Made by a program: the position numbers and the translations under genes
Shown here: one piece after another, positions 4,171 through 33,567 of the stretch
How positions within the stretch are numbered: position 1 is the stretch's first letter
How the letters are laid out: the number at the start of each line of letters is the position of its first letter
Notes under the pieces: generated by a model
What the model saw: the letters and a program-made list of their open reading frames with translations, nothing else
The model's database searches: none
What the model was told of the DNA's origin: nothing
Origin: Verrucomicrobiales bacterium
GTDB taxonomy: Bacteria; Verrucomicrobiota; Verrucomicrobiia; Verrucomicrobiales; V1-33
DNA: 33,567 nucleotides
Direction: 5' to 3'
Assembly: GCA_028293305.1 (NCBI GenBank)
Contig: JAQGPD010000285.1
Coordinates: 1 to 33,567 of the forward strand

Positions 4171-4226
4171 TTCTATTTTCTATTTTCTAATTTCTAATTT
4201 CGAAATTTTCAAATTTTCCATTTCCC
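4171..4226. repeat. AT-rich periodic tract (TATTTTC/TAATTTC/AAATTTTC units, 7-8-bp period, ~7 units)
   Basis: Read directly: ttctattttctattttctaatttctaatttcgaaattttcaaattttccatttcc, between the yicC stop (4231) and the gmk start (4058). Confidence 0.8.
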
Positions 4227-27949: not shown

Positions 27950-28202
27950 TGCCCCGCACCGTGGACTGCGGAGACTTGTCTCCGCTTTCCCGGACGAAGC
28001 TTGCTGAGTCGTTTCTCCTCCGCGTTCTTTCCCCAAAGCCCGTCAAGCCTCCGTCACGACGGCATGTTTCCGACGACTCAATGAATGAAGCCAGCCAAAT
28101 CCTATCAAGCCAAGGACTACTGTCCACTGCGCTGGAAGTTCCTGCAAAGCACGGTCCTGCTGAATCCTGCCAGGAATCTCCTCCAACTCGCCAGATCCTG
28201 AC

Positions 28203-28231
28203 AAAAAGCGGGTGGGGCCGCATCCGCTTTT
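28203..28231 (-). terminator. Candidate intrinsic terminator of the EEP gene
   Basis: - strand reads AAAAGCGG-atgcggccccac-CCGCTTTTT: an 8-bp stem (half A-U), a 12-nt loop and a T5 run. It lies 19 nt downstream of the stop at 28250. Weak stem. Confidence 0.4.
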
Positions 28232-28249
28232 CCGAAAACCTCAAAGCCC

Positions 28250-29278
28250 TCACAGACCCACGGTAATCAGCTGCCAGGCATGATCGTAGAAACCGGGCGT
28301 GCCTTTTTGCGCGCGTAGCGGGCGGAGGTCGGGCGACATCCAAATGTGGTCGATGGACAGGAGCGGCAGGCCCAGGGGCCATGTGGCATTCCCGGGAGAG
28401 CCAGGGGATTGGCTCAGGCCGTGGTTCCATGCGTGCCGCCACGGGTCAAAAGCGGTGGAATCGTAGGGGGTGTTGAAATCACCGATGACGAGAGTTCTCG
28501 GCGCTGAGCCGGCGAATTGGCGGACGGCTTCCGTGCGGTCCGTGCGGGGAAGCAGCGGCCATGGGCCAAGATCCGCGAGGATGAGCTGCCAATGTTCCGC
28601 TGGATTGTCGGTGAACTGGCAGTGGAGCCAAAGGGCGTTGGTGCGGCTGGGAAGGTGGATGGTTTTTTGCAATTGAGCCCGGCCCAGCACCGCCAGGAGT
28701 ATGCCGCCCGGCAGCCGGGAAATGTGATAGTCAGGATGCCGGACCCGCATGGCCGCGAGGTCCTCCGGTGACTGTTTCTCCGCCTCCGCGAGCACGAGGA
28801 TGTCAGGGCGGTGGCGCTGCAGGAGCTCATGAACCTGCGCGGGAACCTGCCTGGGATGGTTGATATTCCAAAACAGCACCGTGCGGGCAGGACCGGCCAC
28901 CGATCCGGGAGGGATGGGTGCCAAAGGCGGCGGAGCGGGGGAGAATTTCCAGCCGGCAAAAGTAACCAGCAAACCAAGCCCGGCCAATCCGAGTCTGAGT
29001 CGCAAGCCCCGGCGATTCAGGAAAGCCGGTAGCGCGAGCAGCGGCCATGAAACCAACAAAATGGGCCAGGGGCCGATGTAAAAAAACAGGGCGGACCAAT
29101 CGTGGGCATCCCTCACCGTCAGTCGGACGAGGAGACAAATCCATGTCAGGATCAGCAGTGCCCAGGGCAGCCGGGATGCCGCCAGGCGGTGCAGGCCACG
29201 TTTCCAACGGTTCGTCGCTAACATTCCATCGGCGCTCCTCGCGGCCGGGGCGCGGGAAGCACGCGAAGTGATAGGCAT
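28250..29278 (-). CDS. Membrane-anchored endonuclease/exonuclease/phosphatase (EEP) family protein
   Basis: 342 aa. About 3-4 N-terminal TM helices. EEP motifs 'VLFWNINH', 'ILVLAEAE', 'VIGDFNTP', 'SIDHIWMS'. Confidence 0.8.
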   Translation of the reverse strand: MPITSRASRAPAARSADGMLATNRWKRGLHRLAASRLPWALLILTWICLLVRLTVRDAHDWSALFFYIGPWPILLVSWPLLALPAFLNRRGLRLRLGLAGLGLLVTFAGWKFSPAPPPLAPIPPGSVAGPARTVLFWNINHPRQVPAQVHELLQRHRPDILVLAEAEKQSPEDLAAMRVRHPDYHISRLPGGILLAVLGRAQLQKTIHLPSRTNALWLHCQFTDNPAEHWQLILADLGPWPLLPRTDRTEAVRQFAGSAPRTLVIGDFNTPYDSTAFDPWRHAWNHGLSQSPGSPGNATWPLGLPLLSIDHIWMSPDLRPLRAQKGTPGFYDHAWQLITVGL

Positions 29279-29371
29279 GGCGGTCGGAGGCGTGGGCCGG
29301 TCAGGATTTCCATGGGCGGTCCATGCCCCCCCGGGGGAAGGCGGCCCGCCCTGGAATGAAGTGGACTTTTT

Positions 29372-30619
29372 TTAGCCGCGGATCATGCCGGCGGCGACGG
29401 TTTCGTTGGTGCCCGCATCGATGAGGATGAAGCTGCCGGTGATGCGGTTCTTGCTATAGGGATCGAAAATGATAGGGGCGCTGGTCCGAATGGAGATGCG
29501 GCCGATGTCGTTCATCTGGAACTCGAGGTCGTCCTCGATTTTATGCAGGGTATTGATATTGACCTTGTATTTGACTTCCTTGATGACGGCCTGGACCTCG
29601 CGGGTGGTGTGGCGGAGGATGAAGCGGCCGCGGGGATTCAGCGGTTTTTCGCCGAACCAACAGATCATGGCCTCCAGGTCCTGACCCACCTGGGGCGGGT
29701 TGTTAGCCTTCACGATCATGTCGCCGCGGCTGGTGTCAATTTCGTCCTCCAGGAGGAGCGTGACCGAGAGCGGGCTGTAGGCTTCCTCGAGCGGGCCGTC
29801 GAGGGTGTGGATTTCCTTGATGCGGGACTGGAAGCCGCTGGGGAGGACGGTGACGGCATCGCCAGGCTTGAAGACGCCACCGGCCACGCGGCCGCTGAAG
29901 CCGCGGAAGTCATGCCATTCATCGCTCTGCGGGCGGATGACCCATTGCACGGGGAAGCGCGCTTCGACGTGGTTTTCGGTGGTGCCCACATACACGGTCT
30001 CGAGATGATAGAGCAGGGTGGGGCCTTGATACCAGGGCATGGCTTCCGACTTGTCCACCACGTTGTCGCCTTTCAGCGCGCTGATGGGGATGAAGGTCAT
30101 TTCCACCAGGTTGTCGAGGCGGCTGGCGAAGCATTGGAAGGCTTCTTTGATTTCCTCGAACTTGGCCTCGGAGTAGTCCACGAGGTCCATTTTGTTGATG
30201 GCGATAACCACATGCTGGATCCGCAGCAAATTGGCCAGGAACGCGTGTCGGCAGGTCTGCTCGATCACGCCTTTGCGGGCATCGATCAAAATGATGGCCA
30301 GATTCGCCGTGCTCGCGCCGGTGACCATGTTGCGGGTGTATTGGATATGCCCCGGCGTGTCCGCGATGATGAATTTCCGCCGCGGGGTGGCAAAGTAACG
30401 ATAGGCCACATCAATAGTGATACCTTGCTCGCGTTCGGCGCGCAGGCCATCGGTTAGCAAGGCGAGGTCCACATGCTCGTCCCCACGCTTTTTGGAAAAA
30501 CGCTCCACCGCCGCGAGCTGGTCCTCGAAGATGGATTTGGAGTCGTAAAGCAGACGGCCAATGAGGGTGGATTTGCCGTCGTCGACGGAACCGGCGGTGG
30601 TGAAGCGTAGAAGATCCAT
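29372..30619 (-). CDS. cysN: Sulfate adenylyltransferase subunit 1 (GTPase), without fused APS kinase
   Basis: 415 aa. 'LRFTTAGSVDDGKSTLIGRLLYDSK' G1, 'DTPGH' G3, 'NKMD' G4. Typical CysN length and domain order. Confidence 0.92.
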   Translation of the reverse strand: MDLLRFTTAGSVDDGKSTLIGRLLYDSKSIFEDQLAAVERFSKKRGDEHVDLALLTDGLRAEREQGITIDVAYRYFATPRRKFIIADTPGHIQYTRNMVTGASTANLAIILIDARKGVIEQTCRHAFLANLLRIQHVVIAINKMDLVDYSEAKFEEIKEAFQCFASRLDNLVEMTFIPISALKGDNVVDKSEAMPWYQGPTLLYHLETVYVGTTENHVEARFPVQWVIRPQSDEWHDFRGFSGRVAGGVFKPGDAVTVLPSGFQSRIKEIHTLDGPLEEAYSPLSVTLLLEDEIDTSRGDMIVKANNPPQVGQDLEAMICWFGEKPLNPRGRFILRHTTREVQAVIKEVKYKVNINTLHKIEDDLEFQMNDIGRISIRTSAPIIFDPYSKNRITGSFILIDAGTNETVAAGMIRG

Positions 30620-30622
30620 GGT

Positions 30623-30680
30623 GGAAAATTGGGAAATAAGAAAATAAGAAATTAAGAAATTAAGAAATAGGAAGATAGGC
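30623..30680. repeat. AT-rich periodic tract (GAAATTAA/GAAAATAA units, 7-8-bp period, ~7 units; complement TTAATTTC)
   Basis: Read directly: ggaaaattgggaaataagaaaataagaaattaagaaattaagaaataggaagatagg, between the vapC stop (30693) and the cysN start (30619). Confidence 0.8.
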
Positions 30681-30692
30681 GAATTGGAAATG

Positions 30693-31094
30693 TTATGCTT
30701 GCCAGTCTTCGATTTTCAGGCCGGGGACGCGGGAGAATTCGTGGGTGTTATTGGTGACGAGCGTCATGTCATTAGCCAAGGCTATCGCCGCAATCATGGT
30801 GTCGTGTGGGCCGATTCGTGTGCCGGTTTGGCTCAGAAAGGCATGGATTTTTCCAAAAACGCTGGCTGAGGCGTCGTCAAAAGGACAACTCGGCAGGTCT
30901 TCAAAAATTTGGGAAAGACGGGCCAGACTGCGACCAGGGTCCGGGCTCTTCCAGGCACCGTATAGCATTTCCGCTTTTACAACGGAGCACAGAAAAAGGT
31001 GGCCCGGCGGGGTAGCTGAAATCCTGGCAGTGATTTGTGGACATTTGCCGCCAAGATGCCGGGAAACGGCGTTAGTATCCAGGAGCCACTTCAT
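30693..31094 (-). CDS. vapC: PIN-domain type II toxin (VapC family)
   Basis: 133 aa. 'WLLDTNAV' (Asp1), 'SVVKAEMLYG' (Glu), 'GPHDTMIAAIA' (Asp), 'LVTNNTHEF' C-terminal motif. ATGA overlap with the upstream small ORF. Confidence 0.85.
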   Translation of the reverse strand: MKWLLDTNAVSRHLGGKCPQITARISATPPGHLFLCSVVKAEMLYGAWKSPDPGRSLARLSQIFEDLPSCPFDDASASVFGKIHAFLSQTGTRIGPHDTMIAAIALANDMTLVTNNTHEFSRVPGLKIEDWQA

Positions 31095-31330
31095 GGGAAT
31101 GGGTCGCGGTCAGTTTCCCAGGGGGACTCCTCATAATCTTCCGGAAAATCCGGTAGCGAGCCTGCGGCGGCCACGAACCTGGCGTGCTTTTCCTCCAGGG
31201 TCCGCCCTGGCTTCCCCGCCTCCTGGGCAAAAAGGTCGATGGTTGCCCTCACCAAAAATTCCATTTCGGCGCGTTTGGCGGCGTCGAGTTGGTTGAGGGT
31301 TTGGTCCAGTTGGAGGGCAAGCGTGCTCAT
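31091..31330 (-). CDS. Putative antitoxin partner of VapC (family not recognised)
   Basis: 79-aa ORF whose stop overlaps the vapC start (ATGA at 31091-31094). Acidic C-terminus. Position and size fit a type II antitoxin. No DNA-binding fold recognisable by eye. Confidence 0.6.
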   Translation of the reverse strand: MSTLALQLDQTLNQLDAAKRAEMEFLVRATIDLFAQEAGKPGRTLEEKHARFVAAAGSLPDFPEDYEESPWETDRDPFP

Positions 31331-31336
31331 GGTGAC

Positions 31337-32254
31337 TTAAAAATAGCCTTCTTTTTTCCGGTCTTCCATCGCGGATTCGCTGCGTTGGTCGTCGGCGCGG
31401 GTGCCGCGTTCGGTTTGGCGGGCGGCGGCTACTTCGGCGATGATGTCGTCCAGGGTGGCGGCGGGGGATTCCACGGCGCCGGTGCAGGTCACGTCGCCGA
31501 TGGTGCGGAAACGCATGGTTTTTTCAAGGATGGGTTCCTCGGGTTGGGGTTGGGCGAATCCGGTTTCCGCATCCAGCCATGAGCCATCGCGTTGGAAAAC
31601 GCGGCGTTGGTGGCTGAAGTAGATATTGGGAAGCGGGATGTTTTCCTGACGGATGTAAAGCCACACATCCATTTCCGTCCAATTGCTCAGCGGAAAGACG
31701 CGGAATTGCTCGCCCTCGTGCATGCGGCCGTTGAAAAGATTCCACAGTTCCGGGCGCTGGTTTTTCGGATCCCATTGGCCGAAGTCGTTGCGGTGGCTGA
31801 AAAACCGTTCCTTGGCGCGCGCTTTTTCCTCATCCCGACGGCCGCCGCCGAGGCAGGCGTCGAATTTGTTATCAGCGATGGCGTCCAGAAGGGTCACCGT
31901 TTGCAGCTTGTTCCGGCTGGCGCGGTGGCCTTTTTCCTCCACCACCCGGCCTTGGTCGATGCTGTCCTGCACCTTGGCCACCAACAGGTTGGCCCCGATG
32001 TTCTTCACAAATTCATCGCGATACACCAAGGTCTCCGGGAAATTGTGACCCGTGTCCACATGCAGCAGGGTGAACGGAAGTCGTGCCGGATGGAAGGCCT
32101 TCCGCGCCAGCCAGGCCATGACGATGGAGTCCTTCCCGCCCGAGAAGAGCAGCGCGGGATTGCGGAACTGCGCCGCGGTCTCGCGGAGCACATAGATGGC
32201 CTCGGACTCCAATTGCTGGAGCAGGCTGACATTGTAGGATCGGATGGCGGACAT
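31337..32254 (-). CDS. cysD: Sulfate adenylyltransferase subunit 2
   Basis: ORF 31337..32299 trimmed to ATG 32254 (MSAIRSYN...). 'LLFSGGKDSIVM' PP-loop. 'RRDEEKARAKERFFS', 'DPKNQRPELWN', 'RTIGDVTCTG'. This is a canonical CysD signature. Confidence 0.92.
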   Translation of the reverse strand: MSAIRSYNVSLLQQLESEAIYVLRETAAQFRNPALLFSGGKDSIVMAWLARKAFHPARLPFTLLHVDTGHNFPETLVYRDEFVKNIGANLLVAKVQDSIDQGRVVEEKGHRASRNKLQTVTLLDAIADNKFDACLGGGRRDEEKARAKERFFSHRNDFGQWDPKNQRPELWNLFNGRMHEGEQFRVFPLSNWTEMDVWLYIRQENIPLPNIYFSHQRRVFQRDGSWLDAETGFAQPQPEEPILEKTMRFRTIGDVTCTGAVESPAATLDDIIAEVAAARQTERGTRADDQRSESAMEDRKKEGYF

Positions 32255-32572
32255 GGCGGAAATGGGACCCGACCATACCCCCGGTAAAACGCGCGGCAAG
32301 TGAATTCTCCTAATTTCCTATAGGGTTTTAGGGGAATTGAAATGAACTCGGTTACGCCGCCACCACGATGGCAGCCATGGGCACGGCGGAACGCCACCCG
32401 AGAGCGCCCATGGTAGGGCAGGCATTTCCCAGCCAGATTCAGGCGATATTAAAAAAACGGGCCGCGCTCCATCTCTAGCATGCCAGCCAGTGGCCGGTTT
32501 TTGGCAGGCTGGCGAACTCTTCCTCCAGGTTGGGAGCGAACCGAGGCAGGTGTTATGATGGCAACACCCGCG

Positions 32573-32624
32573 AGAAGAAAAAGTGCCGCAGTCCAGGGAG
32601 CGCGAATTCCAAGGACTGCGGCAC
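32573..32624 (-). terminator. Strong intrinsic-terminator-like hairpin with no credible upstream CDS (orphan terminator or attenuator)
   Basis: A perfect 12-bp stem: GTGCCGCAGTCC (32583-32594) pairs with GGACTGCGGCAC (32613-32624). 18-nt loop. On the - strand it is followed by TTTTTCTTCT. Lies about 330 nt upstream of the cysD start. Confidence 0.65.
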
Positions 32625-32791
32625 CAGGGCGGCGGGATTGCCATGCCCGGATTTTTCAGTGGCTGGTTAGGCCCGGGGGTGGTGGGGTGTGGCGGAGTGT
32701 TCGGCGGGGAGGGCGCTTTGGCGAGTGATGGATGGTAACAAGGTGGTTACGCGGGGTGGATGGATAGGAGGCAGATGGACAAAAGAGACCT

Positions 32792-32836
32792 AAAGGACGC
32801 AAAGGACGCAAAGGACGCAAAGGACGAAAGGGACGA
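32792..32836. repeat. 9-bp microsatellite AAAGGACGC x3 plus 2 degenerate copies
   Basis: Read directly: aaaggacgc aaaggacgc aaaggacgc aaaggacga aagggacga. Confidence 0.85.
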
Positions 32837-33049
32837 ACCGGCAAAGCCGAGGAAAAGGGTGAAAGGGTAAGGGTGAAGAGGGAAGGTAACCGCATTTTGC
32901 TAGTGGACGTGTTGGCACTGCCAATGCGCCTTTTTGTGTTCTCTGTGATCTTTGTGGCTAATAGCAATTTTTACCGGCTCGCGTGAAGGCCCGGCGGCAG
33001 TGTGGGATTTTTCTTGCCCGTGGCGGATGTGGCGGCGTTACTGCGCGGC

Positions 33050-33567
33050 ATGAAGTCCATGCGTTTTCCATTTTCTCCGGCAGGTGTGGCGGGCGGTTTG
33101 CTCGGGGTGGTTCTGGCGACGTGGGCGGTGTGGGCGCGGGAGGAACCGGCGAATGTCACCAAGGGTTTGCCGGGGCTGTGGAGGTCGGAAAAACGGGTGA
33201 TTGATCTGCATATGCATATCGATGGAACACCGGAGCGGTTTGATAGGGCGGTGCGGATCATGGATGAGGCGGGCGTGGGGATCGGGGTGAACTTGAGTGG
33301 GGGAACGGTGACGCCCGGGGAGGGCGGGGAGTCGGAATTCGAGAAGGTGAAGGCCTTGGCGGATGAGAAATATCCCGGCCGGTTCGTGCATTATATGAAT
33401 CTGGATTATGCGGGATGGGACGACCCGGATTTCAGCGCGAAGGCGGCGCAGCAGATTGTGGATGGTCACCGCATGGGCGCGGCGGGCTTTAAAGAATACA
33501 AAAGACTGGGTTTGTTTTTAAAAGATAAGAATAAGGATCTGGTCCGCATCGACGATCCGAGGTTGGA
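33050..33567 (+). CDS. Amidohydrolase-superfamily (TIM-barrel metallo-hydrolase) protein, 3'-truncated by the window end
   Basis: This open frame is not in the ORF track because it has no stop before the window end. Translation: MKSMRFPFSPAGVAGGLLGVVLATWAVWA (signal/TM) ...'VIDLHMHIDG' (HxH metal motif) ...'GAAGFKEYKRLGL'. In-frame stop upstream at 32984. ATG 33050 is the first ATG; GTG alternatives lie at 33002, 33020 and 33029. Confidence 0.7.
   Translation, partial: MKSMRFPFSPAGVAGGLLGVVLATWAVWAREEPANVTKGLPGLWRSEKRVIDLHMHIDGTPERFDRAVRIMDEAGVGIGVNLSGGTVTPGEGGESEFEKVKALADEKYPGRFVHYMNLDYAGWDDPDFSAKAAQQIVDGHRMGAAGFKEYKRLGLFLKDKNKDLVRIDDPRL

Follow-up and report, generated by a model that had tools for sequence, protein, structure and literature searches.

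This report concerns the 33,567-nt contig JAQGPD010000285.1 (hereafter the window, meaning the whole stretch) from a Verrucomicrobiales bacterium, in which two small genes resembling a toxin–antitoxin (TA) pair lie between cysD and cysN, the genes for the two subunits of sulfate adenylyltransferase. Read along the minus strand, the order is the cysD stop codon, 6 nt, an open reading frame (ORF) of 79 amino acids, an ATGA overlap, a PIN-domain ORF of 133 amino acids, a 73-nt spacer, and then cysN. A first-pass annotation of the same DNA had listed these features, and all of them are present by sequence, by ORF structure and by the family models for CysD and CysN. Comparison of the locus with those of relatives indicates that the pair is an insert in the cysD–cysN gap. 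Coordinates throughout are those of the whole window, and all features of the cassette are on the minus strand:

31337..32254, minus strand: cysD, sulfate adenylyltransferase small subunit, 305 amino acids (TIGR02039; Pfam PAPS_reduct, 8.9e-44)
31337-31339, minus strand: TAA stop codon of cysD (from the sequence)
31331..31336, minus strand: junction GTCACC, 6 nt, from the cysD stop to the antitoxin ATG (from the sequence)
31091..31330, minus strand: AT79, the 79-amino-acid antitoxin candidate (ORF)
31091-31094, minus strand: ATGA overlap of the AT79 stop and the toxin start (from the sequence)
30693..31094, minus strand: VapC-type PIN toxin, 133 amino acids (PF01850; match to solved VapC structures)
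30620..30692, minus strand: cysN leader spacer, 73 nt, G-poor, with a tandem 8-nt repeat inside (TRF; folding)
29372..30619, minus strand: cysN, sulfate adenylyltransferase large GTPase subunit, 415 amino acids, ATG at 30619 (TIGR02034; PRK05124)

The 133-amino-acid ORF encodes a PIN domain (PF01850, E 1.4e-12, 48.7 bits against a cut-off of 23.6). Its best NCBIfam matches are two tRNA(fMet)-specific VapC models, NF047863 and NF010285 (E 1e-35 and 1e-22), and both scores fall under the curated cut-offs (122.9 bits against 140, and 80.4 against 143). By sequence, the tRNA(fMet)-specific VapCs are its closest family, without certified equivalog status. The protein aligns end to end with solved members of that family (6ifc, 9h6a, 3tnd and 5ecw; PDB sequences, E ~1e-20), and its residues D6, E42, D98 and E119 stand in register with theirs, as does the C-terminal block VTNNTxEFxRVPGLxIEDW. 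Conservation of the acidic PIN residues, to which the first-pass annotation had tied its identification of a toxin, is borne out: D6, D98 and E119 are invariant in an alignment of 11 alleles, ten located at cysDN and one from an outgroup. E42 is found in all aligned VapC alleles but one, which has lysine. That allele (L040:952-1353 and L041:1422-1823), the nearest to the window's at 81% identity, may encode an attenuated toxin. We class the window's protein among the PIN RNases of the tRNA(fMet)-specific VapC type; its acidic active site is intact. The toxin family is large, with 1583 matches at E ≤ 1e-10, and at least six PIN genes are present in the window genome (68% complete).

The small partner lies upstream of the toxin with the ATGA overlap, an arrangement common to all intact relatives. 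Together with PF01850 and the match to solved VapCs, this upholds the first-pass call of a VapC-type toxin with a small upstream partner. AT79 itself is a different matter. It has no match in Pfam, NCBIfam or PADLOC, and ten members of its family, compared with Pfam even at E ≤ 10, gave no ribbon-helix-helix (RHH), AbrB, Phd, helix-turn-helix (HTH) or other model. An AT79 profile run against PDB sequences gave chance matches only, to designed helical proteins or bundles. The AlphaFold2 model built with the family alignment has a mean predicted local distance difference test score (pLDDT) of 71; it is all-helical, with helices at residues 3-14, 17-38 and 45-57, no N-terminal strand and an unstructured tail, and Foldseek found no similar fold in the PDB. 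As far as these searches reach, AT79 falls outside the known VapB classes (AbrB/SpoVT, RHH, Phd/YefM and HTH), as the first-pass annotation had judged by eye for AbrB, RHH and Phd: no profile or fold search links it to any of them. A DUF2281-like antitoxin was considered and dropped, because Pfam includes that family and gave no match. The best-conserved parts of AT79 are its N-terminus, MSTLALQ, and an acidic tail, GSLPDFPEDYEExPWETDR (residues 57-75). The N-terminal MSTLALQL is invariant as protein while its synonymous sites vary. By analogy with VapBC complexes of known structure, the acidic C-terminal tail would be the segment that binds the toxin.

The cysD–cysN gap is a polymorphic slot. 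CysD was searched for in 40 relatives, and the distance from cysD to cysN was measured. Five genomes of the same genus (G003, G004, G005, G008 and G009) have an empty gap of 50-56 nt, two (G006 and G010) carry a homologous TA pair that is 45-63% identical to the window's, and one (G007) carries the antitoxin only. All outgroups with adjacent genes also have a gap without the TA pair, of 41-144 nt in other genera. The first-pass annotation had proposed an insertion inside the operon and looked to relatives for its presence or absence and for target-site scars. Presence does vary, with the gap empty in the five congeners and in all those outgroups, and no target-site duplications or scars were seen at the empty sites. 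The 3′ end of cysD is alike in empty and occupied loci, and the window's spacer has just its TTCGCCTAT...ATG part in common with the empty loci. Across the genus, TA alleles are 45-86% identical, against 91-99% for CysD and CysN, and at least nine divergent TA allele classes are found at the slot.

Other genes occupy the same address. In G001 (L004) it holds a 125-amino-acid gene of the 23S-rRNA-IVS type, a four-helix bundle (PF05635 / TIGR02436; PF05635 E 1e-26), flanked by inverted GCGGTCAG / CTGACCGC repeats. In G002 (L008), an IVS-type gene is truncated to 59 amino acids, and after it a long (CTGACCG)n array extends as far as the start of cysN. Copies of this family (PF05635 / TIGR02436, E ≤ 0.001, several under the Pfam cut-off) number six in G001, 14 in G002, two in G005 and none in the window genome (G000). 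In L049 a degenerate antitoxin is followed by an IVS-type gene, and in L043 VapC carries a one-base homopolymer frameshift. In L044 the antitoxin precedes an unrelated 187-amino-acid ORF, and remnants of both VapC ends remain. This ORF (L044:1745-2308, plus strand) stands in place of the VapC body, opens with a VapC-like MTWLID and has a degenerate VapC 3′ remnant behind it. It has no match in Pfam, NCBIfam or PADLOC, and could be a different cargo or toxin, or else a spurious frame.

The decayed loci share one pattern. In all five (L043, G007, the P0003 contig, L044 and L049), the antitoxin has been kept and the toxin lost, and the reverse was never seen. Such toxin-first decay matches the prediction of toxin–antitoxin logic. 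Where they could be estimated, ratios of nonsynonymous to synonymous substitution rates (dN/dS) lay at 0.08-0.37 in the antitoxin gene and at 0.11-0.13 in the VapC gene, so that purifying selection acts on both.

The history of the slot is one of repeated change. In a rooted nucleotide tree of cysD plus cysN, with other genera as the root, the genus has a basal clade with an empty gap, and the remainder is mixed; presence of the antitoxin changes three times on this tree, and presence of an intact VapC six times. The synonymous rate (dS) is 0.7-1.0 in the flanks and mostly saturated or not computable in the TA genes. The age of alleles relative to species was therefore judged from identity matrices and near-isogenic pairs instead. 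For L042, the matrices of flanks and cassette are incongruent. It is 99% identical to L035 in the flanks, with only 64% in the antitoxin and 71% in VapC; against L045 the figures are 85% in the flanks, 91% in the antitoxin and 87% in VapC. A sliding comparison of L035 and L042 gives 97-100% identity on both sides of a ~535-bp block of ~50% identity, which begins near codon 5 of the antitoxin and ends ~100 nt short of the VapC stop. L034 and L049 are ~99-100% identical over ~3.8 kb of flank, and their entire cassettes differ, from the stop codon of cysD through to the start of cysN. Different cassettes in near-isogenic flanks show that homologous recombination replaces the content of the slot, through either the cysD and cysN arms or the conserved cassette ends. 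Each near-isogenic configuration was found again in several independent samples.

The antitoxin family is bound to this one slot. Ten relatives of AT79 came out of 5.8 billion protein clusters in a word-indexed search, and seven matches at E ≤ 0.001 out of 1.84 billion representatives in an exhaustive profile search. All clear relatives (E ≤ 1e-6) with a readable contig adjoin cysD on its downstream side, mostly with a PIN gene and cysN next; this survey of context left out P0007 and P0010, which are on short contigs, and the marginal matches P0011 and P0015 (2671 amino acids). P0011 (77 amino acids, on a 953-nt ENA contig) has the consensus N-terminus of the AT79 family as its first 25 residues and an ExbD-like (PF02472) C-terminus as its remainder; it is most likely an assembly chimera. 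A VapC match at 60% identity led to three further contigs with the same layout. When 38 genomes of the bacterial family were searched in six frames, strong AT79 matches lay at the cysDN slot only, in four genomes of the genus. The first-pass annotation had described such modules as mobile, and this description does not carry over to the cassette, which shows no behaviour of a free hopper: the clear antitoxin relatives with a readable context are all in one slot, and alleles are swapped there by homologous recombination. The partner of an outgroup VapC (54% identity) is unrelated and beta-rich, and the setting of that pair is a mobile element. A literature search on cysD, cysN and VapC together gave unrelated Mycobacterium and Klebsiella papers only.

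Weak matches to the AT79 N-terminus extend further. Two sister genera have small proteins that are alike over the first 35-40 residues (MSTLALDLQATLRKLD...LERLVRD). These proteins pair with PIN genes outside cysDN (L066:1501-2153 in G014, and L068:920-1617 on the minus strand in G049), and their tails differ. Identity between the window's toxin and the PIN partner in G014 is 48%. The cysDN cassette probably arose from a vapBC that stood on its own in this bacterial family, with the G014 and G049 pairs as the likely source pool, and the N-terminal part of AT79 is probably a reusable antitoxin module.

Between the cassette and cysN lies an AT-rich repeat tract, which the first-pass annotation had placed at 30623-30680 and considered as a possible internal promoter or enhancer for cysN. 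The tract is shorter. TRF reports a GAAATTAA array of period 8 and 4.6 copies at 30633-30668, and a looser pattern stretches the repeat to 30622-30668 (sense strand ATTTCTTA). Nor is it confined to the junction, being one of about 85 in the genome, 49 of them near ORF starts. In the window genome (G000, 61.6% G+C), tandem ATTTYYNN gives 116 raw matches that merge into 85 tracts, against 0.24 expected from base composition. The 49 tracts end 25 nt or less from where a same-strand ORF of 100 or more amino acids starts (random positions, 23%), and the median distance is 12.5 nt. Two further tracts lie in the window, at ~1690-1729 and ~4182-4220. On the sense strand the units read ATTTCYWA, with the usual ending ...AATTTTCCC, and many tracts lie between co-directional genes. 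Copy number differs among relatives, with two units before cysN in L007 and L035 and 4.6 in the window. The 96 nt around the cysN start have a minimum free energy of -2.2 kcal/mol (z-score 0.34), no better than shuffled sequence.

The tract is one case of a genome-wide G-poor, structure-free repeat leader. Across the clade, the 8-nt repeat tracts look like a class of repeat leader or promoter. The tract is not an insertion scar, and the congeners with an empty slot already have a pyrimidine-rich gap of 50-56 nt. The presumed tie between the AT-rich tract and the insertion is thereby corrected.

The linkage of the two host genes also bears on what the insert has done. The first-pass annotation held that cysD and cysN are normally adjacent or overlapping and that the pair uncouples them. 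This does not suit the lineage: cysD and cysN never overlap in the genus, and they are on separate contigs in four sister genera. Sister-genus genomes with the two genes on different contigs are G013, G018, G016, G017, G011, G014 and G023; their cysD has unrelated genes after it, such as, in L012, one whose product carries a SWIM-zinc-finger-like motif. The subunit genes appear to be unlinked in much of the bacterial family. Given the spacing of the empty gaps and the unlinked genes of the sister genera, the 720-nt separation in the window would be no drastic change for this lineage.

Both host genes are assigned by curated models, CysD scoring above its curated NCBIfam cut-off (TIGR02039, 426.5 bits against 396.6) and CysN above both of its own (TIGR02034, 581.6 against 336.1; PRK05124, 600.5 against 590). 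The open frame of cysD extends upstream to a TTG at 32299; the likely start is the ATG at 32254, which gives the 305 amino acids called in relatives. The 6-nt junction between cysD and AT79 leaves no space for a separate promoter there. Most TA-bearing loci have a junction of ~5-7 nt, and four (L048, L010, L050 and L049) have one of ~22-50 nt. No sigma-70-like promoter or terminator motif was found on the minus strand of the cysD–cysN interval, the promoter consensus of this phylum being unknown. An Rfam scan of 28000-33567 at E ≤ 0.1 gave no match, and no phage or integrase genes were seen near the cassette in the window or in the relatives' contigs. No Shine-Dalgarno-like GGAGG was seen in the 45 nt upstream of the window's long ORFs. 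C-rich contexts (CCACC, TCCGCC, GATCC and GTTCC) precede start codons in these 45-nt stretches, for example at 30620-30664 and 32255-32299.

We propose that the two ORFs form a working vapBC-like type II TA cassette, carried as a passenger in the cysDN intercistronic gap of a Verrucomicrobiota genus. We put the probability of this reading at roughly three in four. Having no recognisable promoter or terminator, the cassette would be transcribed with cysD from the cysD promoter. AT79 would be translated by re-initiation 6 nt past the cysD stop, and VapC through ATGA coupling, with cysN translated on its own from the unstructured, G-poor repeat leader. The acidic C-terminal tail of AT79 would cover and block the VapC active site. 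By homology, VapC set free would cut tRNA, probably the initiator tRNA, and halt translation. The cassette would persist by addiction like other chromosomal TA modules, and sulfate assimilation would have no need of it. Selfish persistence of this kind is the default reading in view of the pattern of presence and absence, the turnover of alleles and the precedents in Escherichia coli.

Several points weigh against this proposal. The RNA target is a guess only, since the tRNA(fMet)-VapC scores fall below the NCBIfam cut-offs. The AT79 model is moderate in quality (pLDDT 71). The near-isogenic comparisons are between metagenome contigs, and assemblers can collapse conserved flanks. A promoter within the 3′ end of cysD is possible. 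Finally, recurrence of the N-terminal module with other PIN toxins is what would be expected of a DNA-binding or dimerisation module, which makes autoregulation possible.

The last two points lead to the idea of a self-regulated module, in which the N-terminus of AT79 would be a DNA-binding or dimerisation domain, possibly a degenerate RHH, acting on an autoregulated promoter in the last codons of cysD. We regard this as rather unlikely. It would suit the protein-level invariance of MSTLALQL amid varying synonymous sites, and the similar N-terminal module that heads PIN partners outside cysDN (L066 and L068) follows the usual two-module architecture of antitoxins. However, no RHH, AbrB, Phd or HTH match emerged from Pfam for ten members at E ≤ 10, the AlphaFold2 model is all-helical without an N-terminal strand, no sigma-70-like site was found, and the cysD 3′ end is alike in empty and occupied loci. 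The first-pass annotation had raised a bolder possibility, a link to sulfur control, in which the cassette has been domesticated as a regulator. With the pair made from the cysDN transcript only, repression of the operon would stop the supply of antitoxin and free VapC, tying translation initiation to the state of sulfur assimilation. Strict confinement of the antitoxin family to cysDN, the lack of a visible separate promoter and purifying selection on both genes would all accord with such a role. It is nonetheless improbable, as the slot is empty in five of the 11 species genomes of the genus (the window genome and ten congeners) and in all outgroups, with cysDN intact. Further, the toxin has repeatedly been lost or replaced by unrelated genes, and alleles only 45-60% identical replace one another in near-identical backgrounds, which is typical of selfish or conflict genes. 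For the comparable relA-mazEF and dinB-yafNO arrangements, no functional tie to the host operon was found (PMC7167474).

High allele diversity, quick turnover at one site that is fixed between core genes, and the entry of other small genes into the same slot could also be the marks of anti-phage cargo. The cysD–cysN gap would then be a small defence hot spot, with VapBC acting by abortive infection and turnover reflecting an arms race. This too seems quite doubtful, given that PADLOC matched neither member of the TA pair, nor the IVS-type protein, nor the 187-amino-acid ORF, and that no phage or integrase genes lie nearby. The first-pass annotation had also considered that relatives might show the small ORFs to be conserved accessory proteins of sulfur metabolism. 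If the two proteins were such accessory factors of sulfate activation and no TA pair at all, their occurrence only between cysD and cysN would follow naturally. They are, however, absent outside the genus and missing in half of the congeners; the 133-amino-acid protein is a full-length VapC homologue with a nuclease active site, and the pair diverges to 45-60% identity where CysD and CysN stay above 91%. This explanation is effectively refuted.

The passenger cassette proposed here adds one more case to a known habit of selfish modules; it is no new system of sulfur control. Its value lies in the series that it provides. Uncultured Verrucomicrobia offer a clean natural series at one address, with empty, intact, swapped, toxin-dead and antitoxin-only states, in which near-isogenic pairs pin the recombination breakpoints. 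An uncharacterised antitoxin module is also added to the partners of tRNA(fMet)-type VapC. We speculate, with no great confidence, that cysDN may be a dedicated single-slot cassette locus, in which promoter-less VapBC modules rely on the host promoter. Their alleles would not neutralise one another, would be kept under balancing or frequency-dependent selection (through strain incompatibility or phage pressure), and would be swapped by recombination through the conserved ends of the cassette and the arms in cysD and cysN. If true, this would be a natural system for the diversification of TA specificity at one chromosomal address.

Three sets of known systems help to place the cassette. Its closest counterparts in sequence are the VapBC systems of Shigella flexneri pMYSH6000 and Salmonella LT2 (3tnd, 6ifc and 5ecw). 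The likeness comprises the full-length toxin alignment, the four acidic residues and the C-terminal block, together with an upstream, translationally coupled antitoxin gene. The window's antitoxin differs, with no similarity detected to any solved VapB or Pfam antitoxin domain; its toxin falls short of the NCBIfam equivalog cut-offs, and the module is chromosomal, inside a metabolic operon.

Antitoxins without a DNA-binding domain of their own include epsilon of omega-epsilon-zeta and PaaA2 of paaR2-paaA2-parE2. Like AT79, these are small and mostly helical or disordered; AT79, should it likewise bind no DNA, would share with them a transcription set by something else. Unlike the cysDN cassette, they have a dedicated third regulator gene of their own; at cysDN, the promoter of the host operon would serve instead.

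In genomic setting, the nearest parallels are relA-mazG and dinB-yafP of E. coli, whose intercistronic gaps hold the TA pairs mazEF and yafNO and are plastic sites (PMC7167474). Strains without mazEF or yafNO have intact relA-mazG and dinB-yafP operons, and no functional link between these pairs and their host operons has been found (PMC7167474). How TA pairs come to lie between housekeeping cistrons, and how these sites turn over, is still unexplained (PMC7167474). As in relA-mazEF-mazG and dinB-yafNO-yafP, the pair at cysDN sits between two host cistrons, and the bicistronic operon is undisturbed without it. The site is likewise plastic, holding elsewhere empty gaps, other alleles, the IVS-protein gene and the 187-amino-acid ORF. 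The cysDN case differs in that co-transcription with the host operon is inferred only, and in that its antitoxin family is confined to one slot in public data, with at least nine allele classes there and near-isogenic swaps that are visible directly.

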